This document shows positions 4,244 to 63,652 of a stretch of DNA of 64,000 nt, piece after piece. The first letter of the stretch is position 1, and each line of letters begins with the position of its first letter. The translations under genes and the position numbers were made by a program. This DNA comes from a virus, in the IMG/VR virus record IMGVR_UViG_3300005690_000024, positions 1 through 64,000 of that record. The stretch is one strand, 5' to 3'. Under the pieces are notes generated by a model. The model did no database searches and was not told where the DNA came from. It was given only the letters and a program-made list of their open reading frames with translations.

Positions 4244-4468
4244 CTGGTTTGTCGGGAGCACACGATTCATTGAGGGTGTCGCGCCACTAAGGCGTAGCGA
4301 TGGGTGACAGTGACTGTTGAAATGCGATTGGGCACAGTCACGAAGATGCCGACTGCCAACGCTTGTTGTTTTGTCAGCAAGTAGCCCGACTCCATGCGGG
4401 GCAGATTCGATCGGGCAGCCACATATTGCAGACGAGCGACCTGAGATCGTGTGTTCCGGACAGATCAG
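4244..4468 (+). ncRNA. Candidate structured ncRNA or cis-regulatory RNA (unassigned family)
   Basis: 4244-4267 pairs with 4445-4468 (23 of 24 bp counting G-U); internal hairpins 4281-4295, 4310-4341, 4361-4382, 4384-4416. Confidence 0.5.
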
Positions 4469-4520
4469 TTTGTGGAGGGTTTTATGTGGGAATGGATTTG
4501 GGATTGCGACAGGCGATTTG

Positions 4521-4727
4521 ATGACATCCGATGGTCAAGAGTTCGATTCGGCGTACGTTCTGGGCGTGCTTGGCGTAATGTTAAAGCCATGCCCGTGCTG
4601 TGGGGCAGAGGCACGAATACAGAAAATGGGGATCATGTGCCCGAAGTGTAATCTTCAGATGCCGTTTGGTCATGTTTCTATTGTTGGAAGATTAGTTGAG
4701 CGATGGAACTCGCGAGTCAAGGAGTGA
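4521..4727 (+). CDS. Lar (restriction alleviation)-like Zn-finger protein
   Basis: LKPCPCCG...CPKC...WNSR pattern; start uncertain. Confidence 0.5.
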   Translation: MTSDGQEFDSAYVLGVLGVMLKPCPCCGAEARIQKMGIMCPKCNLQMPFGHVSIVGRLVERWNSRVKE

Positions 4728-4731
4728 TCAG

Positions 4732-4929
4732 ATGGGTGAGCGTTTTCTTTCATATTTATTGTGGTTGGCAACCTGCTTCTTTATTTTGCGTGCTATTCAC
4801 ATGCTGTGGACTACACAGGGTGGAACAGACATCATGCCAATAGTGGGCATGTTCGCGGCGGTTCGCGATGGTGTGGTTGCGTTTGTATTGTTCCTGGTCG
4901 GCGTTCTACTTTTGCCAACTGGCAAGTGA
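4732..4929 (+). CDS. Small two-TM membrane protein
   Basis: Two hydrophobic segments; GGAG SD. Confidence 0.55.
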   Translation: MGERFLSYLLWLATCFFILRAIHMLWTTQGGTDIMPIVGMFAAVRDGVVAFVLFLVGVLLLPTGK

Positions 4930-4967
4930 TCTAGTTTCTTGTTTGGTAGTTTGTTTACAGGGAGTTT

Positions 4968-5270
4968 GTGATGCTTAGTATCAAGAAGAAGTCGAGTGGC
5001 GAATACACAGAAGTGTCGGGCTCGTCAGCCGAGGTGATGATGTTTTACTGCTTCTGGCAGTCGCATCAGTGGCCAGCATGGGCGGAGCACTCCAAGATTG
5101 GCAGTGAAGGCGATCCTGCGACGATGGAGTGGAAGGCAGTGATTGACTCCATCAAGGATGGTCGTCCTCTGTTGATGATGTTCGAGAAGTCGTGTGACTT
5201 CGCAGCCGAGAAGATGCGGGCTCTTGGTGTCAGGGTCGTTTCAGTGAGTCCAGTAAACCAGAAGGTGTAG
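4968..5270 (+). CDS. Hypothetical protein
   Basis: GGGAG SD; part of tightly packed + strand ORF chain. Confidence 0.55.
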   Translation: MMLSIKKKSSGEYTEVSGSSAEVMMFYCFWQSHQWPAWAEHSKIGSEGDPATMEWKAVIDSIKDGRPLLMMFEKSCDFAAEKMRALGVRVVSVSPVNQKV

Positions 5271-9913: not shown

Positions 9914-10188
9914 TGTCGATGGGCGGGCTTAGCAGTACTACGATCGACGGTCAGCCTGTGAAGTACGGAGACCTGTGCAGTGTCGAGATCCACGAGGGCG
10001 ACAAGAGCAGGTTCGTGCTGGCCGACTTCGTCGAGATGTCTGACGCGGGCGATGCGTGGTTTCGGTGTCGGTACGCCACAGACCGCGTCGGAGGTGATCG
10101 GTATTTTTCAGATTACCAAGTCAGTGTCGGTTGTATCACAGTGATCGGCGACGAGACGCCAGACATGTTTTGCGGGGAGAGTATCTGA
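9913..10188 (+). CDS. Hypothetical protein
   Basis: TGATG coupling. Confidence 0.5.
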   Translation: MSMGGLSSTTIDGQPVKYGDLCSVEIHEGDKSRFVLADFVEMSDAGDAWFRCRYATDRVGGDRYFSDYQVSVGCITVIGDETPDMFCGESI

Positions 10189-10223
10189 GTAAGACACACG
10201 TCGTGTGAGTATGTTGGTCAAAA

Positions 10224-10766
10224 ATGTCTCCTCCGAACGAGTGCCTGTCATTATCAGGTGACTCGTTTTCTTTTTTAGTGGGGTGGACTGTGATTTTGAT
10301 AAAGCCGTCTGCTACGGCAGACAGTCGTACGTGTGATGTGGGGCAGGTGACGAAGGAGATGCTGCTGGAGTCAAGCCGACAGCATATTGGCGATGTCGTG
10401 AAGGCGATGGCGTTCTTCAGCGGGAAGCTCGTTGAGGCGGCTGGGGCTCACGATTACGACAAATTGACGGCGATTGATTGGTTCTTCTCCGACTTCCGCA
10501 CGAAGTTTGTAGAACACGGCTGGTGGGACAATCATCGGAAGATCCATCGGCATCATTTGGGGCAGGAAGATGGTGTCCCAGAGGATGTGAATCTGTTGGA
10601 TGTTCTGGAGTACATCGCTGATTGTGTGATGGCTGGTAAGGCGAGAAGTGGTTCCGTGTATCCACTGGTTGCGTCTGCGGAGTTGCTGCAGAGGGCGTTT
10701 CAGAACACGGTGGATCTGATCAGTAGTGAAGTCGAAGTCGTGCGAGAACCGCAGAGGGTTGAGTAA
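10224..10766 (+). CDS. HD-like (DUF5662-type) protein
   Basis: HDYDKL...HRKIHRHH...NLLDVLEYIADC pattern. Confidence 0.55.
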   Translation: MSPPNECLSLSGDSFSFLVGWTVILIKPSATADSRTCDVGQVTKEMLLESSRQHIGDVVKAMAFFSGKLVEAAGAHDYDKLTAIDWFFSDFRTKFVEHGWWDNHRKIHRHHLGQEDGVPEDVNLLDVLEYIADCVMAGKARSGSVYPLVASAELLQRAFQNTVDLISSEVEVVREPQRVE

Positions 10767-10813
10767 ACGCGGACTTGTGATCCGCTGCTCACGGAACAAC
10801 AGAGGAACAAACA

Positions 10814-11341
10814 GTGTCAGCAACACCAGACCAGAACTTTGCATCCGCGATCGAAACGCTGTACGGCGGGACTGCCGACACGTTTGTGGTTTGCGCTGGT
10901 GCTGGTCTGCCGGTTGCTCTCAAGAGTGTTTCGGAAGTCAAAACGCTGCTCGGTCAAGGCACGATGGCGGCGAAGTCCACCTATCAACTTAAGGTCGCAC
11001 TTTCCGGATACGACCAGTTGTTGAGTGCGGGAACAAAAAAAGGGTTTTTCGATATCTCAATTCCCGGCGTGATCACTGGGTTCTCGGTCTGCTGCGATCC
11101 TGCAAACGAGCCGTCCGCAGTTGCAGCAGAATTCGATTTGAACACCGTCAACGCAAGCACTGGAGCACTGACAAGCGTTCTGTCTTCTGTTGCATCCATC
11201 GCAACGGGAGCCAATGTCAGCACGGGTGGCGTTGTCAACGGGAGCCCTTCAGTCGCTGCCGGTGACAAGCTAGCCGTGGACTGCGATCAGGGATCGGATG
11301 GAAAGTTTTACGTAGCAACAATCACAATCACAGCTTCCTAG
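10814..11341 (+). CDS. Putative virion structural or decoration protein
   Basis: Ala/Gly/Ser/Thr-rich, beta-like; first gene of the 10.8-14.8 kb block. Confidence 0.5.
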   Translation: MSATPDQNFASAIETLYGGTADTFVVCAGAGLPVALKSVSEVKTLLGQGTMAAKSTYQLKVALSGYDQLLSAGTKKGFFDISIPGVITGFSVCCDPANEPSAVAAEFDLNTVNASTGALTSVLSSVASIATGANVSTGGVVNGSPSVAAGDKLAVDCDQGSDGKFYVATITITAS

Positions 11342-11351
11342 GATAACGACA

Positions 11352-11924
11352 ATGGCAGTAAACGAACTCACAGGAATTGACCGCGATAAAGACCGGTTCG
11401 TGGTCTTTCTTCCGGGGCAGGAAAACAGCACGAAGACCAACGAGATTTGGCCACGATTGGACGGCGGTCCAGTCAACGGCGGGTTCGTCAACGGTGAGAT
11501 GTACTACAAGAAAGTCCACATCGATCCGCCTCCGTATGACCATCGGTATTCGCTCGTGACTACGCATGGAAAAGTTGAAACGGAGCCGACGCCGCCTGCT
11601 GGCTATCCCGTCGGAACGTGGCGACCGTTTTACGAGTTGGAACTGCGACCGCTGGAAACCCAATTGGCGCACATCGACACCGAATTCCAATACGAGTTGC
11701 AGCGTCGGTATCCACAGGTCGCGGACTTGTCGACGTACATCCTTGCGGCTGACATCATCACGAAAAAGCAAAACGGTGGTGTTCTGACGACTGAGGAGCA
11801 AGCCACACTCGACGCGATTAATGTGGTTGGCGACGGTGTTCGACTCATGGCCGATCGACGGGCTGAAATGAAAGCGGCTGCAACTGCTGGAGAGGATTAC
11901 GACGTCACAGCGTGGCCGTCATGA
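11352..11924 (+). CDS. Putative tail-fibre-associated or assembly protein
   Basis: Position in virion block; ends YDVTAWPS as in fibre chaperone-like proteins. Confidence 0.4.
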   Translation: MAVNELTGIDRDKDRFVVFLPGQENSTKTNEIWPRLDGGPVNGGFVNGEMYYKKVHIDPPPYDHRYSLVTTHGKVETEPTPPAGYPVGTWRPFYELELRPLETQLAHIDTEFQYELQRRYPQVADLSTYILAADIITKKQNGGVLTTEEQATLDAINVVGDGVRLMADRRAEMKAAATAGEDYDVTAWPS

Positions 11925-12688
11925 TGACGCCGGGATTTGGCCCGACTCGCAAGCAAAAGCCGTATTTCCCGTATCCGGAAAAAGATCGAGTGATTATCAA
12001 CAGTCACAATTTTACGCCGGGGTTTTTGTATCCGTCGCTGCGGGACACTCTGCCTGTCGCTGGATATTATGCCCGGCTCGACACTGGTTCTGCAGTGTCG
12101 GATCAATTCACTGCTGATGGATCGCAGGACGGGACGCTGACGAACGGGGCAACGCGGGCAGATGACGGGGGTTTAGCGTATTCATTCGACGGAACAAACG
12201 ACTACATCGCATTTCCGCTGCAGAGCTACGTCACGAGTGATTTCACACTGTCTGCGTGGGTGAAAACTACGTCGAACAATTATCAGTACGCAATTGCGAT
12301 GGAAGGTGCGATCAGTCCTTCTGGACGCTGGGAGCTTCTGCGAGTTGATATTCAGGCAAACCGAGTTATCAGCGGGTATTTGTTTAATGGCGGGAGCGTC
12401 TACATTGGCGGCACAACAATCGCAAGCGACACATGGGCGCACGTGGCTTTCACGCGATCTGGAAACCTGTTTAAGTTTTTCGTCAATGGATCGCAGACAG
12501 GATCAGGGACCTACACGCCGACGTTGATTGCAGCATCACCGAGCATTAACGATCTTGGGGCTCGCCGCAATTCGCCGACGACTCTGCCGCTCGCGGGAAA
12601 AATTGACGACGTGTTGATTTACCCAATTGCACTGGACGCAACGAACATCGGATACCTCGCATCACAGCGTGGTGCGATTTACGCTTAG
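11921..12688 (+). CDS. LamG / concanavalin-A-like domain protein (putative receptor binding)
   Basis: YSFDGTNDYI, FTLSAWVK, WAHVAFTR, FVNG, GKIDDVLIY motifs. Confidence 0.85.
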   Translation: MMTPGFGPTRKQKPYFPYPEKDRVIINSHNFTPGFLYPSLRDTLPVAGYYARLDTGSAVSDQFTADGSQDGTLTNGATRADDGGLAYSFDGTNDYIAFPLQSYVTSDFTLSAWVKTTSNNYQYAIAMEGAISPSGRWELLRVDIQANRVISGYLFNGGSVYIGGTTIASDTWAHVAFTRSGNLFKFFVNGSQTGSGTYTPTLIAASPSINDLGARRNSPTTLPLAGKIDDVLIYPIALDATNIGYLASQRGAIYA

Positions 12689-53953: not shown

Positions 53954-54147
53954 TCAATGATGACCGGCTGTTTGATGCATACGAGCGGGAATGCGATGTG
54001 ATCGAGCGACAGCATTCGATGGGTCAGATCACCCGTGAGGAGCGTGACGATCAGTTGCGAGACTTGGAGCGAGATGCGAGGGAGGAGGCGCGATATATGG
54101 TGAGTCAGGTGGGAACCTTTTATGGCGACGACCCGAATGAGTACTAG
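53950..54147 (+). CDS. Hypothetical protein
   Basis: ATGA overlap. Confidence 0.55.
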   Translation: MINDDRLFDAYERECDVIERQHSMGQITREERDDQLRDLERDAREEARYMVSQVGTFYGDDPNEY

Positions 54148-54409
54148 CCTGCCCAGTATGTTTTCTGCTACGGGAACAGAATCATGGCTTTCTTTGGATG
54201 TACCCGATAATGGGTTTATCATCTTTGTTGGGCCAGATTGGCTGGTGTGTGTTGATGGTCCTGTCTATTCAGACTCTGAGTGCAAAGCCACAAGGTGGCC
54301 GACGAAAAGATCTGCCCAGCGTGCATTGAGTCGTCTTCGGAAGCAATGCAAGAAGAGTTTCGCAAGGGCGAGTGTGTGTGAGATTAGAGAAGGGGTGAGA
54401 CTGGAATGA
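54122..54409 (+). CDS. Hypothetical protein
   Basis: ORF chain; start uncertain. Confidence 0.4.
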   Translation: MATTRMSTSLPSMFSATGTESWLSLDVPDNGFIIFVGPDWLVCVDGPVYSDSECKATRWPTKRSAQRALSRLRKQCKKSFARASVCEIREGVRLE

Positions 54410-54690
54410 TTAAGTTTCTTGATACACATGACTTGTACGTCCAGCGAGTCAATCAGGAGGGCGACAACTTCCATCTTGCTGTTGCGATGTTCCCGATCAG
54501 AGTGGTGAATGTGGCGATGTCATTGCGTGATCTCATTGAGAGCAAACGATGGGCGGCGCCGCATCCGAGTCACGATGAGATGGTGAAGTACCTGAGTGAG
54601 AAGATTCAGGACGAGTATCGGGCTTTGTTTGGCGTACCAATGGGAGGTGGCTGTGAGCAGAAAGAAGACGCGGCAGGAGATGGCGGCTGA
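54406..54690 (+). CDS. Hypothetical protein
   Basis: ATGA overlap. Confidence 0.5.
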   Translation: MIKFLDTHDLYVQRVNQEGDNFHLAVAMFPIRVVNVAMSLRDLIESKRWAAPHPSHDEMVKYLSEKIQDEYRALFGVPMGGGCEQKEDAAGDGG

Positions 54691-54922
54691 TCAGCCTGAG
54701 CGGTGTGGTGGCGGCTGTCGTGCGAAGAAGCGGAAAGTTGAGAAGCCGTATCGGGTTTATTGGCGAGTTCCATTGGAGCGTGATGTGTGGCATCCAATTG
54801 CCCATGAATGGCATGGGTACAAGCGGTACGAGACGATGGAACTGGCTGAGGCGTATGTGTTGAAGAGGCAGCGGACTGAGACGCTGGTGAAGTACGAATA
54901 TCAGATTGTGATTGATAACTAA
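54680..54922 (+). CDS. Hypothetical protein
   Basis: GGAG SD. Confidence 0.5.
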   Translation: MAADQPERCGGGCRAKKRKVEKPYRVYWRVPLERDVWHPIAHEWHGYKRYETMELAEAYVLKRQRTETLVKYEYQIVIDN

Positions 54923-54935
54923 CAAGGGGAAGTTT

Positions 54936-55895
54936 GTGCAGACGAGAACGATCAAGGCAGTCCTTCGTAAGAAAATTGACGCATGGGCTGATTCTGTGAA
55001 GGATGAGGAGATCCAGAAGATCATCCGCCAGCAGACTGTTGTGACGGGCGGTTCGATTGCGTCCATGCTGTTGCAGGAAGAGGTGAACGACTACGACGTG
55101 TACTTCAAGACGGGTGAAGGTGCGTTCGCGGTCGCCAAGTACTACGTCAACAAGATGAATGAGACTCGGAAGGCGAAGAACGGGAGTGGCATTGAGATCC
55201 CGTTGTTTCTTGCTGACCCGTTGACAAAGGCGCCGATCGATTCGTTCTCAGGGAAGCGGTTCGTGATCCTGGCGAAGTCTTCGGGTATCGCTGAAGAGGA
55301 GAACGCGGGCGACTATCAGTACTTCGAGCAGAATGATCCAGAGGGCACTCAGGCAGAGGCGTATCTGGATGACACCAAGAAAGCAGCAGAAGCTGCGGCA
55401 AGCAAAGAGAAGGGGGCGTATCGAGCCAAGTTCATGTCATCGAATGCGATCACGCTGAGCGATGATGTGCAGATCGTGATTCGGTTCTGGGGTGAACCGA
55501 GCGAGATCCACCAGAACTACGACTTCGTTCATTGTACGTGCAGTTGGACGTCTTGGAATGGCGAGCTGCGAACTCCAGAGGCGGCGTTAATTGCGTTGAT
55601 GTCACGCACGTTGACGTATGTGGGAAGTCTGTACCCGATCTGTTCGTTGATTCGAACCAGGAAGTTCATCCAGCGCGGGTGGCGAATCACGGCGGGGCAG
55701 TATTTGAAGATGGCGTTCCAGGTGTCGAAGTTGAACCTGTGCGACGTTCGGGTTTTGGAAGATCAGTTGACGGGTGTGGATTCGGCGTTCTTCGCACATT
55801 TGATCTCGATCGTGGAGAAGGATGTGAAGGAAGGCAAGAAGCCGGAAGAGATCGACGCGGCGTATATCTGCCAGTTGGTGGATCGGATCTTCTGA
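54936..55895 (+). CDS. Pol-beta superfamily nucleotidyltransferase-like protein
   Basis: VVTGGSIASMLLQEEVNDYDVYF (GG...DxD); NYDFVHC. Confidence 0.65.
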   Translation: MQTRTIKAVLRKKIDAWADSVKDEEIQKIIRQQTVVTGGSIASMLLQEEVNDYDVYFKTGEGAFAVAKYYVNKMNETRKAKNGSGIEIPLFLADPLTKAPIDSFSGKRFVILAKSSGIAEEENAGDYQYFEQNDPEGTQAEAYLDDTKKAAEAAASKEKGAYRAKFMSSNAITLSDDVQIVIRFWGEPSEIHQNYDFVHCTCSWTSWNGELRTPEAALIALMSRTLTYVGSLYPICSLIRTRKFIQRGWRITAGQYLKMAFQVSKLNLCDVRVLEDQLTGVDSAFFAHLISIVEKDVKEGKKPEEIDAAYICQLVDRIF

Positions 55896-55901
55896 GATTG
55901 T

Positions 55902-55915
55902 GCGTATAGGCATTG
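55902..55915 (+). promoter_or_regulatory. CGTATAG motif copy
   Basis: GCGTATAGGCATTG 6 nt after stop. Confidence 0.65.
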
Positions 55916-55954
55916 ACGGTGGGAGTGTGGTTGCTATTCTTCGAGGAGTGATTG

Positions 55955-56257
55955 ATGTCCAGGGCGAGCGAAGTTCTTCAGGCAGCGTTTGAATCCGATC
56001 CGAATGCGATGCATGCGTTGGTGGTGAATCGTTATCCGTGCAATCAGGCTTTGGCAGACGATCCGTTTGTGATTGTGGATGTACCACCAGTTCTTGGCGG
56101 GACTCACTTTCAGGTTGGGATGCTTGGCGTGTTGAACGGTGTTCTGGTCGCCAACGGTCTTCCGAAGGTGGCTGTGAAGTGGTCGAACGAGCGAGATGAA
56201 GACGGACAATGCATGGTTCTTGGTTTCTGCGACTACGTGGAACCATCGGCAGAGTAA
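55955..56257 (+). CDS. Hypothetical protein
   Basis: GAGGAG SD. Confidence 0.6.
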   Translation: MSRASEVLQAAFESDPNAMHALVVNRYPCNQALADDPFVIVDVPPVLGGTHFQVGMLGVLNGVLVANGLPKVAVKWSNERDEDGQCMVLGFCDYVEPSAE

Positions 56258-56283
56258 ACGTGGAATTCCGTTCCGCTGTTGCG

Positions 56284-56376
56284 GCGGAACGACTAAAATC
56301 AGCCGGTTTGCGGACGGTTGACTTCCAATTTCAAAGCAGCGTTGCCCGCAAACTCGGCTGCATTTTATTGTTATTT
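56284..56376 (-). mobile_element. attC site 1 (canonical on minus strand)
   Basis: Minus strand: R'' AAATAAC, spacer AATAA, L'' AATGCAG, stem, L' CTGATT, spacer TTAGTC, R' GTTCCGC. Confidence 0.8.
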
Positions 56377-56388
56377 TGCGAGGGTGTA

Positions 56389-56589
56389 ATGGCAGACCCA
56401 AAACACAGCGATGAAATACACAAGAGAAAATTGATAGTTGTAAGGGCAATTCGCGATGGCTGCCCAGATTGCCCCGACGAAGGATTGATGTGCGAAAAGC
56501 ATTTGAGGGAGTTGAGGCCACTGTTCACGCGACCTAGGCAGCGGCTGAAAGCGTTTGAGGATCGGTTGTTTTCGGATCAGTCAAAATAA
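56389..56589 (+). CDS. Cassette ORF 1, hypothetical (66 aa, CPDC...CEKH)
   Basis: GAGGG SD right after site 1; stop TAA inside CAAAATAAC. Confidence 0.65.
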   Translation: MADPKHSDEIHKRKLIVVRAIRDGCPDCPDEGLMCEKHLRELRPLFTRPRQRLKAFEDRLFSDQSK

Positions 56590-56670
56590 CGCTCGCGATC
56601 AGCGGTGGCCGCGAGAGATTTTGTTAGCAGTGGAGACGTTGACGGCCTCCGCTGCATTGCGTGGTTATTT
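56584..56670 (-). mobile_element. attC site 2 (canonical on minus strand)
   Basis: R'' AAATAAC, CACGC, L'' AATGCAG, stem, L' CTGATC, GCGAGC, R' GTTATTT. Confidence 0.85.
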
Positions 56671-56686
56671 TGCATTGGGGAATGCG

Positions 56687-56911
56687 ATGAAAATTGGACC
56701 AGTGAATTTTGGAAGCCTCAATGCGTGGCGGTACGCATGGAAGATGCGGGGATCGGTTCCGATGGTATACCTTCTGCGAAACAGCAAGGGTGTCATACCT
56801 GGGCGATGGGGCTTCGTCGTTCTCGGCTTTGAGTTCGGCTCTCGCAACTCAGATAGCAAGTTTGGACAGTGGTTGCACCGTGTTGGGCTGTGGCCGTTCA
56901 TGTCAAAATAA
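56687..56911 (+). CDS. Cassette ORF 2, hypothetical (74 aa)
   Basis: GGGG SD after site 2; stop TAA inside CAAAATAAC. Confidence 0.65.
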   Translation: MKIGPVNFGSLNAWRYAWKMRGSVPMVYLLRNSKGVIPGRWGFVVLGFEFGSRNSDSKFGQWLHRVGLWPFMSK

Positions 56912-57008
56912 CGCTTGGCATAAGCCGGGCGAGTGTCGACGTGGTGTGAGTGTAATTTTCCCGCATGACGACAGAGGTTAACGCCTCGGCTTCATGCCAT
57001 TGTTAGTT
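56906..57008 (-). mobile_element. attC site 3 (canonical on minus strand)
   Basis: R'' AACTAAC, AATGG, L'' CATGAAG, stem, L' CTTATG, CCAAGC, R' GTTATTT. Confidence 0.85.
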
Positions 57009-57021
57009 TGCGAGGGTGATC

Positions 57022-57249
57022 ATGAGCATTCAGTTGAACCGACATCAAGCGGAATTGTTGCTATCGTTTTTTGATAGCGGGGACTTCGATGACGTGGTTT
57101 TAGAGGTTGAGTTTCATGAGGTGGGACCACACGGGCCGGGGCTGTACTGTTGGCATGCTGAGTATCCGGAGGAAGGCAAGTCGTTTTTGCCATCCGTTAG
57201 CGAAGCCGTAAAGCAATGCGAAAAGATAGTTGCTGATACGTCAAACTAA
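57022..57249 (+). CDS. Cassette ORF 3, hypothetical (75 aa)
   Basis: GAGGG SD after site 3; stop TAA inside CAAACTAAC, the exact complement of GTTAGTTTG at 57002. Confidence 0.65.
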   Translation: MSIQLNRHQAELLLSFFDSGDFDDVVLEVEFHEVGPHGPGLYCWHAEYPEEGKSFLPSVSEAVKQCEKIVADTSN

Positions 57250-57253
57250 CTTG

Positions 57254-57430
57254 ATGGATTACCGAGAAGCCCGAGAGAAGGCGATACAGACCGTTTTGCG
57301 GTTGGTGATCGAGTTACCGTCTCCATTGCGTTCGCTCTTGGATGCTTTGAGGGAGAGGCCACAATTGTTCGGACCGGATACTTGTGTGTCGAGTTCGAGT
57401 GGGAAGGAAAGCCCCGGCGAATCTACATAG
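57254..57430 (+). CDS. Hypothetical protein
   Basis: ATG 3 nt after the last cassette boundary. Confidence 0.4.
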   Translation: MDYREAREKAIQTVLRLVIELPSPLRSLLDALRERPQLFGPDTCVSSSSGKESPGEST

Positions 57431-57509
57431 CCGAGAGCGATATCGTTTCAGGTCCATAAGCAGCGGACTGCGGTTCCTCGTTTGAAGATTTGAAAACCCT
57501 GGAGATTTT

Positions 57510-57698
57510 ATGAGTCGGATACTGAAGTCGTTTAACGATAATGTTGTTTGTAATCTGATCAGAGAATTGAGTAAGGCAATCGATGGTTCGCAACCTCAAA
57601 AGGCTCGTCATCTCTTGAGGGAGTTGAGAAAACTCGGTTTTGATTATCGCTGCAATGATACTGCGGTTCTCGATGAAGCCATTGAACAGAGAAAATGA
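57510..57698 (+). CDS. Hypothetical protein
   Basis: GGAG SD. Confidence 0.5.
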   Translation: MSRILKSFNDNVVCNLIRELSKAIDGSQPQKARHLLRELRKLGFDYRCNDTAVLDEAIEQRK

Positions 57699-58047
57699 GC
57701 AGCGGATTGTGAGTTCTCGTTTACTTTTGGGAGATCATTGGATGTGGGCAAAAACGGAAGTACCTTTACCGCTCGCTCAAGAGTTGTCTGCCAGGGGCTC
57801 GAAGCCCATAGCGTTGCATCTGTACGAGCAAGGAGACAAGCGGCTTGCGGTAATCGTGTCGCACGATCCCAGCGGGCTTGACGGTGCAATTGAGACGCAC
57901 GCAAGTATCTCTGCTTCCGTGTGTGGATTTCGGATACGTCCGACTTACGATGATGTGCGATTGACAGTTCAGCAGCTTGGTTTCGGGGCTCATACGGTCG
58001 ATGCTAAACCGGGGGCGAATGTCGTGCATATTTGGGCATCGCAATGA
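57640..58047 (+). CDS. Hypothetical protein
   Basis: ORF chain; start uncertain. Confidence 0.4.
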   Translation: MIIAAMILRFSMKPLNRENEQRIVSSRLLLGDHWMWAKTEVPLPLAQELSARGSKPIALHLYEQGDKRLAVIVSHDPSGLDGAIETHASISASVCGFRIRPTYDDVRLTVQQLGFGAHTVDAKPGANVVHIWASQ

Positions 58048-58337
58048 ACAGCGGATGTGAGTTCCGATCGTATTCTGGACGTCAGGGGAATCTCATGTGG
58101 ATAAAACCAGATCTGCTTGGTCCACAGAAAGGGCCAGCCACTCAGCCGAGGTTAAAGGCTCAGTGGCGTCAGATCGATCGTGAGAACAGGGAGGCGATTG
58201 CTGTCCGTATTGAGTGGATGCATCTACTTGGGTTCGATGGCGAAGAGATTGCAGATGCCTGCAAGGATGCGTTTGACTTGGATCTTGTGGATGAACTGGC
58301 CGAACTTGTGGCGGCGAAGATGCTGGCGAAAAAGTGA
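58044..58337 (+). CDS. Hypothetical protein
   Basis: ATGA overlap. Confidence 0.45.
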   Translation: MNSGCEFRSYSGRQGNLMWIKPDLLGPQKGPATQPRLKAQWRQIDRENREAIAVRIEWMHLLGFDGEEIADACKDAFDLDLVDELAELVAAKMLAKK

Positions 58338-58592
58338 AGTGTGGCCACACTTGAAGGTGGTTAAAATCAGGCCAGATAAGTCAGTTGCTGGTGTGTGTAG
58401 TTGCTGAAAACACGGGATTTTATGGGGTTGTTAGTTGTTGTTCTCGCTTTCGTAAAGCGTAGGTCATCGATTCGAATTCGATCGGCGGCTCTTTTTTGAG
58501 AGCCAAAAACACAAGGGAATCAGTGAAAACTGGTTCCCTTTTTTGTTGCGCTGTGTTTGGTAAACTACGCTTCCACACTTGTTCCCACACTT
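58337..58592. repeat. CCACACTT repeats flanking attP core (putative integrase arm sites)
   Basis: Palindrome AAGTGTGGCCACACTT 58337-58352; direct copies 58573-80 and 58585-92. Confidence 0.65.
58445..58490 (+). other. attP core: 3' half of tRNA-Thr(CGT)
   Basis: Anticodon arm CGCT-TTCGTAA-AGCG, variable loop AGGTC, T-arm ATCGA-TTCGAAT-TCGAT, acceptor strand CGGCGGC-T; no 5' half upstream; ~115 nt before integrase. Confidence 0.8.
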
Positions 58593-58603
58593 GGAAGCGT
58601 GAA

Positions 58604-59782
58604 ATGGCAGACCGACCAGAGAAACCTTATCCAGACTTCCCGTTGTTTCCACATGCAAAGGGGTACTGGTGCAAGACGATCAAAGGGAAGCAGTGGGCGT
58701 TTGGTCCGTGGGCTGACCCTGATGCGGCGTTGCAGAAGTATCTGGACTGGCGAGACCAGATCATGGCGGGGAGAGACCCGCGTAAGCAGGCTGCTGAGAC
58801 CGCTGTGGGCGTCACGCTGAAGGAACTGTGTAATCTGTTCCTTGTCGCGAAGAAGGGCGCCATGGAGCGGGGAGAGCTTTCTGTGAGGTCATACGCTGAG
58901 TACAGGGGTGAAGCGAAGTGGCTGTGTGACTGCCTGGGGCGCGAGACAGGTGTGGCCACACTGATGCCAGCCGACTTTGCGAAGTTGCGGGCGAGCTATC
59001 CGAAGACGTGGGGCATTGTCACGGTGTGTGGGCACATCACGAAGACGAAGTCGATCTTTCGGTTTGGTTACGAGAATCGGATCATCGAGCGGGAGGTGTC
59101 GTTCGGGTCGGAGTTCGTGAAGCCGACACGGTCACAGTTTCGGAGGAACAGGCAGCAGGCTGAATCAGAGCGGGGGTTGCTGCTGTTCAGCCGGGAAGAG
59201 TTGCTGGTGATCATTGAGAAGGCGGAAGGGTGGCTGAAACCAGCGATCCTGTTGGGCATCCAGGCGGGGTTGGGAAATCGTGATGTCTCGGGGCTGACGG
59301 ACAGGCATGTTGACTTGGAAGGTCGGTGGGTTTCGTACTCGCGCCCGAAGACGGGGGTGTATCGGAGTTTTCCACTGTGGCGAGAGACGGTGGATGCGAT
59401 CGCGGCTTATCGGAAGACTCGGGTTGATGCGAAGCGGGTCGAGGATGGCGGGCTGTGCTTTCTGACTCGGCAGGGCTGTCCGTTGGTCACTGAGATGGTG
59501 CATGCAGACGGGCGGCATATTCAGGTGAACAATCCGACGTTGTCGTTTGCGAAGCTGTTGAAGCGGGAGGGGCTGAAGCGGGCTGACCTGAACTTCTATT
59601 CGCTTAGGAGGACGTTTGAGACGATAGCGGGGCAGTCGAAGGATCAGGTGGCGGTGGACCACATCATGGGTCATGCGGACGACAGCATGGGCGGGGTGTA
59701 TCGGCAGGGGATAGATCGTGAGAGATTGGAGGCAGTTGTACAGCATGTGCATCGGTGGCTATACGGTTCTGGTGAAATTTAG
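58604..59782 (+). CDS. int: Tyrosine recombinase / phage integrase
   Basis: GLGNRD (R), YSLRRTF (H-x-x-R variant), MGH, GGVY; N-terminus KPYPDFPLFPH typical of planctomycete integrases. Confidence 0.9.
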   Translation: MADRPEKPYPDFPLFPHAKGYWCKTIKGKQWAFGPWADPDAALQKYLDWRDQIMAGRDPRKQAAETAVGVTLKELCNLFLVAKKGAMERGELSVRSYAEYRGEAKWLCDCLGRETGVATLMPADFAKLRASYPKTWGIVTVCGHITKTKSIFRFGYENRIIEREVSFGSEFVKPTRSQFRRNRQQAESERGLLLFSREELLVIIEKAEGWLKPAILLGIQAGLGNRDVSGLTDRHVDLEGRWVSYSRPKTGVYRSFPLWRETVDAIAAYRKTRVDAKRVEDGGLCFLTRQGCPLVTEMVHADGRHIQVNNPTLSFAKLLKREGLKRADLNFYSLRRTFETIAGQSKDQVAVDHIMGHADDSMGGVYRQGIDRERLEAVVQHVHRWLYGSGEI

Positions 59783-59823
59783 GAAAAACCGTTTGACTGA
59801 TGTTGTCGCGTGATTGGCGTTTT

Positions 59824-59837
59824 GCGTATAGTCACTG
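59824..59837 (+). promoter_or_regulatory. CGTATAG motif copy
   Basis: GCGTATAGTCACTG before xis. Confidence 0.65.
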
Positions 59838-59860
59838 AGGGAAGTTTTTGGGAGTGATCT

Positions 59861-60097
59861 ATGCGAGACTTGACAATCAGTGAAGTGGCGAAGCGTTTGG
59901 CGATTTCGCGGGCCAATGCGAAGACGTTGGTGTTGAGTGGTCGGTTGAAGGGTTACCGTCTTCCGATGGGTAAGATTGGCCAGTTGCGTGTTCGCGAGAG
60001 TGATTTGGATTTATTTCGGGAGTCGCATGTTGTTTCGGTTGCTGCGTATAGGCACAGTCGGAAGCGTGTGAAGGTGGTTGATCTTTTGGATGGGTAG
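59861..60097 (+). CDS. xis: Excisionase-like HTH (HTH_17 / MerR-like)
   Basis: LTISEVAKRLAISRANAKTLVLSGRLKGYR...RVRESDL next to integrase. Confidence 0.75.
   Translation: MRDLTISEVAKRLAISRANAKTLVLSGRLKGYRLPMGKIGQLRVRESDLDLFRESHVVSVAAYRHSRKRVKVVDLLDG
60044..60057 (+). promoter_or_regulatory. CGTATAG motif copy inside the 3' end of xis
   Basis: GCGTATAGGCACAG ~50 nt before ATG 60106. Confidence 0.45.
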
Positions 60098-60105
60098 GAG
60101 GTTTT

Positions 60106-60315
60106 ATGTCGAAAGATGCATCGGCATGTCAGCGGTCTGCGTGTGGCGTTCCGCTGGATCGTGGCAGGTATCGGATATGGAACAATCCAGGTTCGTTCCC
60201 TGACTACCGTGATTACTGTGTTGTGTGTGGCCGTTCGATTATTGAGTACGACAGAAGCACATCTGGTCCGAAGTTGAAATTTGTCCGTATTGGTCGTGAG
60301 GAGAAAGAGTTATGA
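60106..60315 (+). CDS. Small Cys-containing protein
   Basis: GGAGG SD; YCVVCGR. Confidence 0.55.
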   Translation: MSKDASACQRSACGVPLDRGRYRIWNNPGSFPDYRDYCVVCGRSIIEYDRSTSGPKLKFVRIGREEKEL

Positions 60316-60632
60316 AGTTTGTGGCAATGATCCCTGGTCGTTATGGGAACCGTGCTCTTGTCGAGCTGACTGAGCTGGAGTTTGGATCGCTGACAGGTAA
60401 GCAATGCAGGTTAGAGCATTCGATGGTCGGCATGTCTTATGACGTTAATGGGCTGCGTGATGCACTGTTTGCGATCGCTCGCAACAGCATTGATATTAAG
60501 CGTACTCGGGCGTCGATGCAGGCGTTTCTGGATCTGACTGAGGACGCGGCGATTCTGGCAGTGTTGGAGAAGTGTGGCGTTCCGGTTGTTGTTCAGGAAC
60601 CTGTTGTTGGAGACGACGATGCAGAAGCGTGA
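60312..60632 (+). CDS. Hypothetical protein
   Basis: ATGA overlap. Confidence 0.55.
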   Translation: MKFVAMIPGRYGNRALVELTELEFGSLTGKQCRLEHSMVGMSYDVNGLRDALFAIARNSIDIKRTRASMQAFLDLTEDAAILAVLEKCGVPVVVQEPVVGDDDAEA

Positions 60633-62854: not shown

Positions 62855-63652
62855 ATGGCGTCGATTGATAAGAAGCCAGTTGTGTCATGTGTTGCACAGT
62901 CTCAGTTGAACATGGATGGAATCTATGAGTACCTGCATGCAACAGGGAATGATGAGTTCATTGGGACGATCGCAGCAGCCAGGGGAGATGGCTTGTCTGA
63001 CATGGAGATCTTGGTTAGTTTGATGGCGAAGTTGTGTTACAAGAGTCTGACGCTCGGCCACAACTCGAACATCACTCGGGTGCGGGATATTAAGAGCAAT
63101 ATTGAAGCGGCGATCAGCTCTGAACACGGCAGCGTGTTGGAACATGCCTCGATGTCATTCATTGTCCGTGACTGCAGCCGGATCTACACGCATGAGAAAG
63201 TGCGCCACCGCGCTGGAACAGCGTTCAGTCAGAATTCGGGGAGATTCATTCGGCTGGACGAGATTGATCTGATTGTTGACCCGATCCTCGATCCTGTGCG
63301 AGAAGAACTTCTTGAGGCGGTGAAGTATCTTGAGGATGTCTACGCTCGTATGGCTGACAAGCTTGGCATGAATGAGCCAGGGCTTGACTTCACGCGAAAG
63401 AAGAAGTTGACATCAGCTCTCCGCCGCATCGCGCCGAATGGTCAGGCGAATGAGTTGGGTTTTTCAATCAACCTTCGTTCGCTTCGGTTCACGATCATGA
63501 AGCGTACTGATAGGGCTGCTGAGTGGGAGATTCGGTACATCTTCGCACAGATCTATAAGATCGCAAAGCAGGCTGTTCCGACGCTGTTCTGTGATGCTGT
63601 TGAGAATGAGTACGAGGGGCTTCCTGAGATCAAGTTCGGTCACCACACATGA
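62855..63652 (+). CDS. thyX: FAD-dependent thymidylate synthase
   Basis: HGSVLEH; THEKVRHRAGTAFSQNSGRF (RHR-x7-S-x-R); AEWEIR. Confidence 0.9.
   Translation: MASIDKKPVVSCVAQSQLNMDGIYEYLHATGNDEFIGTIAAARGDGLSDMEILVSLMAKLCYKSLTLGHNSNITRVRDIKSNIEAAISSEHGSVLEHASMSFIVRDCSRIYTHEKVRHRAGTAFSQNSGRFIRLDEIDLIVDPILDPVREELLEAVKYLEDVYARMADKLGMNEPGLDFTRKKKLTSALRRIAPNGQANELGFSINLRSLRFTIMKRTDRAAEWEIRYIFAQIYKIAKQAVPTLFCDAVENEYEGLPEIKFGHHT

Follow-up and report, generated by a model that had tools for sequence, protein, structure and literature searches.

How does an array of integron-type gene cassettes come to lie in a phage that carries no integron integrase, and why do all of its genes run against the usual direction? 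This question is raised by positions 56290-57249 of the window, that is, the whole stretch of 64,000 nucleotides analysed here, which forms the first 64 kb of the 120,507-bp virus record IMGVR_UViG_3300005690_000024 in the IMG/VR database (completeness estimate about 80%). Located between the gene of a 101-aa protein (55952-56257) and the gene of a phage-type integrase (58604-59782), three imperfect palindromes each precede one small open reading frame (ORF). An earlier examination of the letters, called the sequence-only reading below, had taken the palindromes for attC sites, the recombination sites of integron cassettes, lying antisense to the ORFs. We consider it probable that the region is a three-cassette CALIN (cluster of attC sites lacking an integron integrase) of reversed polarity, which sits in a phage gene and would have been moved by an integron integrase (IntI) supplied in trans by the host.

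Results

Identity and strand of the three hairpins

The hairpins occupy 56282-56378, 56582-56672 and 56904-57010 on the + strand. On that strand, from the outside inwards, each has a left box with AAC as its last bases, followed by 3 unpaired nt and a 6-bp stem. Next come a C bulged out of the 3′ arm, a second 6-bp stem (mAGCCG/CGGCTk), another irregularity on the 3′ arm (a T bulge in hairpins 1 and 3, a T.T mismatch in hairpin 2), a stem of 4-8 bp and a variable loop; at the other end stands GTTAkTTTG, the right box. Between the C bulge and the T bulge or mismatch there are 6 bp, and the first bulge lies 9 and 8 nt from AAC and GTT, respectively. The attC geometry that had been claimed, with its boxes, its two extrahelical bases and its spacing, is therefore present in all three hairpins. 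The palindromes and boxes also lie where the sequence-only reading had placed them, apart from the left box of hairpin 1, which is not of the CAAAATAAC type but reads GGCGGAAC (56283-56290) and forms the outer edge, or junction, of the array; the right box of the same hairpin is GTTATTTTG. Folded as DNA and compared with shuffled controls, hairpins 1, 2 and 3 have z-scores of -4.08, -4.36 and -4.3 on the + strand and of -3.3, -3.4 and -3.0 on the - strand. The box motif CAAAMTAAC or its complement occurs seven times in the 64 kb (0.59 expected), a number that was reached in 0 of 100 shuffles. Six copies fall within 56370-57250, while the seventh, at 63014 within coding sequence, is a chance match; the rest of the 120-kb record contains no further copy.

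Recognition as attC was scored with two covariance models, which served as surrogates in place of the model of IntegronFinder. Model R1 was built from 28 hairpins, phage copies, set in the + orientation of the window. Model R2 was built from 33 bacterial copies alone, with no window sequences; its training set had been collected with a pattern derived from the window, so that it is independent of the window's sequences though not of its pattern. Both models gave significant matches at site 1 (R1, 69.4 bits; R2, 57.8 bits, E 1.1e-11), site 2 (R1, 54.5 bits; R2, 51.0 bits, E 4.2e-10) and site 3 (R1, 57.1 bits; R2, 47.1 bits, E 3.5e-9), which is the outcome the sequence-only reading had asked of an attC covariance model. 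Across the 64-kb window, R2 had no match at E<=1 apart from these three hairpins, each on the + strand. No aligned family member departs from AAC or GTT (28/28 and 33/33). A scan of 54000-60500 against Rfam at E<=10 returned no attC-like family and chance matches only, and a tRNA search of the window found none.

A well-studied attC site was used as an external reference for the strand. A 60-nt query of the aadA7-type attC is 100% identical over 58 nt to a site in plasmid R100, directly 3′ of aadA1 and on the same strand as aadA1, with intI1 divergent. R1 matches this aadA1 attC at full model length on the strand opposite aadA1 (35.6 bits, E 4.6e-8), and there is no R1 match on the aadA1 strand of R100. 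R2 likewise matches it at full model length on the opposite strand (29.2 bits). In the R1 alignment the aadA1 attC fills the same columns, the first bulge being 9 and 8 nt from AAC and GTT and the T bulge following after 6 bp. Because both models match the aadA1 attC opposite aadA1, the + strand of the window corresponds to the attC bottom strand, and therefore the three + strand ORFs face opposite to classical cassettes, as had been proposed. Counts of G.T versus C.A pairs showed no strand bias and are thus silent on which strand is selected to fold. By sequence and predicted structure, the three hairpins are integron attC sites.

The loop of attC3 contains a 13-codon mini-ORF, MTTEVNASASCHC (56965-57006), which stops at the TAG of the GTTAG box and is conserved in a related attC of the viral contig L284 (about 4520-4561). 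In many viral attC loops AGGAG..ATG is followed by MT.EV.., read through the 3′ arm. Mini-ORFs of this kind may serve as leaders for translation or for coupling. Over 95 nt, attC3 is 84% identical to the attC of L284, which has a different cargo ORF there.

The cassettes and what they carry

Unit boundaries were set at the AA|C crossover points, where the bottom strand is cut between A and C. This yields cassette 1 (56290-56589, 300 bp, with attC1, a Shine-Dalgarno site and the 66-aa ORF cas1 at 56389-56589), cassette 2 (56590-56911, 322 bp, with attC2, a Shine-Dalgarno-like site and the 74-aa ORF cas2 at 56687-56911) and cassette 3 (56912-57249, 338 bp, with attC3, a Shine-Dalgarno-like site and the 75-aa ORF cas3 at 57022-57249), all on the + strand. 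In every unit the TAA of the ORF makes up the last three bases, directly ahead of the C of the AAC box. One small ORF per unit, with its own ribosome-binding site and a TAA in the box, had been noticed before and is seen in all three.

The two ends of each unit are exact 9-nt complements (56370/56582, 56664/56904 and 57002/57242), as expected of units that were once excised circles. In cassette 1 the complementary ends are GTTATTTTG (56370) and CAAAATAAC (56582), and in cassette 3 they are GTTAGTTTG (57002) and CAAACTAAC (57242). Cassette 3 carries the sole informative compensated change, T to G at its start and A to C at its end. This change pairs the two ends of the cassette; between the arms of hairpin 3 pairing is imperfect. 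The signature, predicted by the sequence-only reading, is thus present in three of three window units, and it holds statistically across the family (see below).

By a codon model trained on long genes of this phage, the + strand ORFs are the best of the six frames (cas1, 0.012; cas2, 0.155; cas3, 0.226). In profile searches cas1 had no family match. Relatives of cas2 were found at 43-92% identity, and in 15 metagenome relatives the gene is an ordinary, tightly packed phage gene without flanking hairpins, so the cargo looks like phage genes and not like borrowed bacterial cassettes. A search for the cas2 family in the viral contigs gave no match. For cas3 there are PHROG matches at E 4e-6 and one relative with 84% identity, which likewise ends in ..TSN, residues encoded by the box; the closest relatives of cas2 and cas3 keep the box-encoded C-terminal residues, ..SK and ..SN. 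No function was assigned by the family searches with cas1, cas2 and cas3 or by the Protein Atlas searches with cas2 and cas3. A tblastn comparison of the window's small proteins with all fetched loci gave one weak match only. There is no promoter-like site on the + strand within the units; one is found at 55913, and a terminator lies at 58513. The cassettes are apparently transcribed by read-through from the phage operon.

The same attC family in other viruses and in bacteria

A degenerate two-arm pattern derived from the three hairpins was used to scan viral contigs and bacterial genomes. Besides the window, at least 115 viral contigs matched, as did at least 120 loci in bacterial genomes, the latter from Acidobacteriota, Planctomycetota, Cyanobacteria, Verrucomicrobiota and Proteobacteria. 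Copies found with an nhmmer profile number 250 for the viral and 199 for the bacterial loci, and the arrays are always co-oriented. Four of five tested bacterial genomes with the family encode an IntI above the curated cut-off of model TIGR02249, Fuerstiella and Blastocatellia being among the sources. Neighbouring true intI genes occur in Acidobacteriota, Planctomycetota and Cyanobacteria, where the cassettes have the canonical polarity. In a genome of Blastocatellia the first hairpin is 1.6 kb upstream of intI, and the bottom strand of the hairpins coincides with the sense strand of intI, a layout that would be expected of a divergently transcribed array.

Complementarity of at least 4 nt beyond AAC/GTT was found between the two ends of one cassette in 71% of viral and 51% of bacterial cases, as against 20% and 11% for the two arms of one hairpin and 13% and 5% for random pairs. 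The two groups differ in polarity. Assigned heuristically, by ORF length and stop position, cassette ORFs lie on the bottom versus the top strand in 52 versus 7 viral cassettes (34 ambiguous) and in 2 versus 23 bacterial ones (11 ambiguous). By these strand calls, reversed polarity is the rule among viral contigs, opposite to bacterial arrays. The median cassette length is 321 bp in viruses and 579 bp in bacteria. For 36 of 69 cassettes the stop codon of the + strand ORF falls within the AAC box, and the phage genes flanking the arrays (replication initiator, RusA, HNH, sliding clamp) lie without exception on the hairpin + strand.

Comparison of phages that share one flank provides a clue to the crossover point. 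Where the GTT-side flank is shared, the hairpin core is kept with it (46 pairs, median identity 0.86), and where the AAC-side flank is shared instead, the core is not kept (21 pairs, median identity 0.64). Since the core travels with the GTT-side flank, exchange takes place at the AAC box, as in IntI bottom-strand cleavage. Together with the complementary ends, this linkage of core and flank is not explained by homologous recombination between repeats. Mosaic breakpoints in the viral contigs coincide with the hairpins, and phages with a common flank have different arrays. None of the phage pairs among the fetched loci had both flanks shared and a different number of cassettes.

The contig L284 contains at least 10 hairpins. 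Its positions 4460-5013 and positions 56904-57250 of the window have identical outer boxes, GTTAGTTTG and GTCAAACTAAC, around unrelated ORFs. This pair hints either that a conserved attC frame can receive new cargo or that new cassettes are assembled on attCs already in place. As a separate observation, 11 of 125 bacterial hairpins (L157, L174, L189, L213 and others) have surroundings that code mostly on the bottom strand, as in phages; these loci may be prophages within metagenome-assembled genomes (MAGs). Other searches were less productive. The window's own 9-nt-box pattern had 3 matches in the viral contigs and was set aside, as the two inspected were chance matches in coding or AT-rich DNA, and a right-arm-only pattern had four. 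Relatives of the upstream 327-aa protein (37-47% identity) are without such hairpins. BLAST with hairpin 3 against plasmids, and with one viral array against isolated phages, gave no match.

Insertion into a phage gene

The array sits inside a small phage gene, as judged from its reading frame and homologues. The 5′ part of the gene (56209-56289, +) comprises 27 codons from the ATG at 56209. The 3′ part (57250-57457, +) comprises 68 codons (57250-57454) and a stop, and has no start codon of its own. Joining the outer crossover points, 56289 and 57250, restores an open frame of 95 codons from ATG 56209, and with the array removed the empty-site junction would read GCGGCGGAA|CTTGATGG. On the top strand the target is ..AAG|TTCC.., a GTT secondary site. 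A profile-free HMMER search of 1.8 billion proteins with the 3′ part found eight homologues, the best with E 1.4e-14 and 58% identity. Each of them extends for at least 27 residues N-terminal to the aligned stretch, and the joined ORF is colinear with the shortest of them, a protein of 91 aa. For the frame after the array, the codon model was undecided between two candidates and the homology search decided; a word-index search with the post-array fragment returned nothing. Because the 68-codon remnant is still open and conserved, the insertion looks recent.

Such an insertion might be the work of a single off-target IntI event that put three cassettes, now immobile, into the gene as an inert relic. 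The broken gene and the lack of an IntI on board are what one would expect of that history, which we nevertheless regard as unlikely. The hairpins are still intact, with scores on a par with those of bacterial copies, and exact 9-nt complementary ends are kept in all three units. The 3′ part, still an open frame of 68 codons at 58% identity to its homologues, points to a recent event. Moreover, hairpins of this family mark mosaic breakpoints in viruses, with arrays that differ where a flank is shared. The array may still be mobile at present.

The recombinase

The sequence-only reading had seen no IntI and had regarded the nearby integrase as a phage enzyme, and both statements hold. The tyrosine integrase encoded at 58604-59782 (+), 1.3 kb downstream of the array, matches PF00589 (E 5e-10) and phrog_1, and is the only tyrosine recombinase in the 120-kb record. 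It has no match among the NCBIfam models and, with the IntI model TIGR02249, none even at E<=10. On these profile matches it is not an IntI and not part of the cassette machinery. No IntI was found in this record, nor in 100 other viral records carrying the attC family. The array is not accompanied by the intI, attI and Pc (the cassette promoter) of a complete integron. What is present, three attC sites within 730 bp in a record without IntI, corresponds to a CALIN.

The sites could also be moved by a phage-encoded or other non-IntI enzyme, such as the neighbouring Int, a Xer-like or a HUH enzyme, which would have converged on attC-type substrates or descended from an enzyme that used them. 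A phage-type tyrosine integrase is indeed close at hand, one of this type is present in 19 of 25 near-complete viral records with the family, and IntI is absent from all viral records searched. However, six complete viral genomes with the hairpins, two of them having terminal repeats, contain no tyrosine recombinase at all. The Int of the window shows no similarity to IntI or Xer models and comes with an attP-like region of its own. In bacteria this site family adjoins true intI genes, and the crossover side fits the chemistry of IntI. We consider a non-IntI enzyme quite improbable. IntI is probably the enzyme, because of this crossover side and because the same attC family lies beside bacterial intI, both of which are indirect arguments.

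A Xer-like recombinase next to an array in L134 (provirus G038, 9933-12100) was considered as an IntI and rejected as part of an IS91 insertion. It scores 190 bits to the IntI model and is without model positions 179-237. It adjoins an IS91 transposase in the middle of an array of this attC family, which indicates that the IS was inserted into the array.

That the hairpins are mainly RNA signals (for processing, attenuation or translation leaders), spread by homologous recombination, is very improbable. In favour of it, phage mRNA carries the better-folding strand, many loops contain a Shine-Dalgarno site with ATG or a conserved mini-ORF (MT.EV...), and blocks to translation are known to be relieved by short ORFs inside attCs (review PMC8876359). 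Against it, homologous recombination leaves both the complementary unit ends and the travelling of the hairpin with one particular flank unexplained, G.T and C.A pairs show no strand bias, and the family is the attC family of IntI-bearing arrays. A role as RNA may well exist in addition to, not instead of, recombination.

Host and neighbouring sequences

The nearest relatives of hairpin 1 are attCs in Planctomycetota MAGs and in the viral locus L108. Because of the former, a planctomycete is the probable host. A separate observation concerns a segment of about 50 nt upstream of int, positions 58445-58495 (within 58337-58604), for which 63 of 301 Planctomycetota genomes gave matches of up to 88% identity. 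The matching segment looks like the 3′ half of a tRNA and would fit, without proving, an attP core and a planctomycete host. The strong terminator hairpin at 58513-58540 also has a weak Rfam match to the sRNA BjrC68.

A second repeat, CAGCGGAyTGyGrGTTC, is found on the + strand at 57459-57483, 57698-57722 and 58047-58065, with an inverted copy at 56256-56278. Copies start one base past the stops of three consecutive genes downstream of the array. The repeat resembles pieces of attC, CAGCGG being like the inner stem and ATTGyG..GTTC like the right end, and its copies may be collapsed attC relics. The gene after the second copy (57742-58047) has a relative of 27.6% identity in a true attC cassette of L284.

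Discussion

The reading that we prefer can be summarized as follows. The array is inserted at a G|TT secondary site within a small gene of the accessory region, 1.3 kb upstream of int. The + strand, which is the mRNA-sense strand, is the attC bottom strand and would fold and be cut between A and C by an integron integrase. An integron-bearing host, most likely one of the planctomycetes, would provide this recombinase, its IntI, in trans while the phage infects it or is lysogenic. The cassettes would come from a phage-specific pool of small reversed units traded among phages and not from the stock of the host. By the reversal, the attC becomes the 5′ leader of the gene, and the cassette ORFs follow the + strand transcription of the phage.

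A reason for the reversal can be suggested. According to published work, the bottom strand recombines about 1000-fold more readily, and excision increases when it is on the lagging-strand template (PMC13108822). Genes in the window are nearly all on the + strand, and the GC skew is positive along the whole length. Because the genes are co-oriented and the + strand is G-rich throughout, the + strand would be the lagging-strand template. A bottom strand placed on the sense strand would then be both the lagging-strand template and the non-template strand of transcription, where single-stranded folding, and hence recombination, would be favoured.

Several points weigh against our reading. First, the movement of the cassettes is deduced from sequence. 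Second, R2 shares a window-derived pattern, and the external anchor is the match to R100. Third, the first extrahelical base is C in three of three window sites and not G as in aadA1 and aadA7, and where an unpaired central spacer would be expected, most bases are paired (3 x 2 nt unpaired). The first bulge is a C in about 97% of the family copies, bacterial ones included. As the C bulge and the paired spacer are common to the IntI-linked bacterial members, they are marks of a subfamily and no ground for exclusion. Fourth, the coding support for cas1 is weak (0.012). Fifth, the family-wide strand calls are heuristic, and 34 of 93 viral cassettes are ambiguous. Finally, the host evidence, namely the relation of hairpin 1 to Planctomycetota attCs and the 88% match to a tRNA half, is weak.

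A further-reaching possibility, to which we give a little less than an even chance, is that phages of integron-bearing bacteria keep their own pool of inverted-polarity cassettes, traded via host IntI and shuffled in the brief period of phage replication, the array in the window being one that was freshly inserted into a phage gene. The attC would then often supply a ribosome site, a start codon or the stop codon of a neighbour.

Integrons are seen as a bacterial device, in which polarity is fixed by bottom-strand recombination so that Pc expresses the genes. If our reading is true, phages use host integron integrases as a gene-shuffling service, and there is a second, phage-specific cassette pool of small genes, for which anti-defence functions would be an obvious target of screening. 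The orientation of cassettes with respect to replication and transcription would then be a tunable design feature. The two models and the pattern offer a sequence handle for mining phage accessory genes.

Comparison with known systems

With classical cassettes, such as aadA1 in In2 of R100 and those of chromosomal integrons of Acidobacteriota, Planctomycetota and Cyanobacteria, the window units share the attC architecture, recognized by one covariance model, as well as the signature of complementary ends and the crossover side. They differ in that the ORF is on the bottom strand, the attC precedes the gene and the stop lies in the AAC box; in the first bulge, which is C and not G, and the mostly paired spacer; and in being small (300-338 bp) and without intI, attI or Pc. 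An ORF that runs toward its attC on the top strand, the mark of a canonical cassette, is found in none of the window units, whereas the bacterial controls show it by 23 to 2. The window sites also differ from the promoter-stem-loop (PeSL) cassettes of T4-type phages and other mosaic boundary repeats. There, stem-loops flank small early genes and mark shuffling points; PeSLs are thought to act via homologous recombination, and they carry promoters. The window sites, in contrast, have attC geometry, complementary ends and a fixed crossover side.

Closer in polarity are the reverse-oriented cassettes of sedentary chromosomal integrons, for example those of toxin-antitoxin genes, whose ORFs likewise run against the usual attC polarity (PMC13108822). 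Those are a minority in canonical arrays and have their own promoters, whereas the cassettes in the window are all reversed and lack a promoter-like site on the + strand.

The closest parallel is offered by the phage arrays of Qi, Rajabal, Ghaly, Tetu and Gillings (2023, Front Microbiol, PMC9892861). These authors described integrons and 17 CALINs in isolated phages, demonstrated that IntI1 recombines phage-borne attCs, the bottom strand being more active, and called co-oriented cassettes typical of bacterial arrays. Their paper makes no mention of ORFs on the attC bottom strand. The belief of the sequence-only reading that such arrays are rarely described in phages is thus to be qualified: CALINs as such were already published, and the reversed polarity was not found in the literature searched. 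Like the CALINs of Qi et al., the array in the window consists of attC sites and small cassettes in a phage without intI. Unlike them, it has reversed polarity and interrupts a gene, and its attC family is present in at least 115 uncultured viral contigs, with IntI in 0 of 100 searched. Phage CALINs are therefore already known, and the reversed polarity, as read from these sequences, appears to be the new part.

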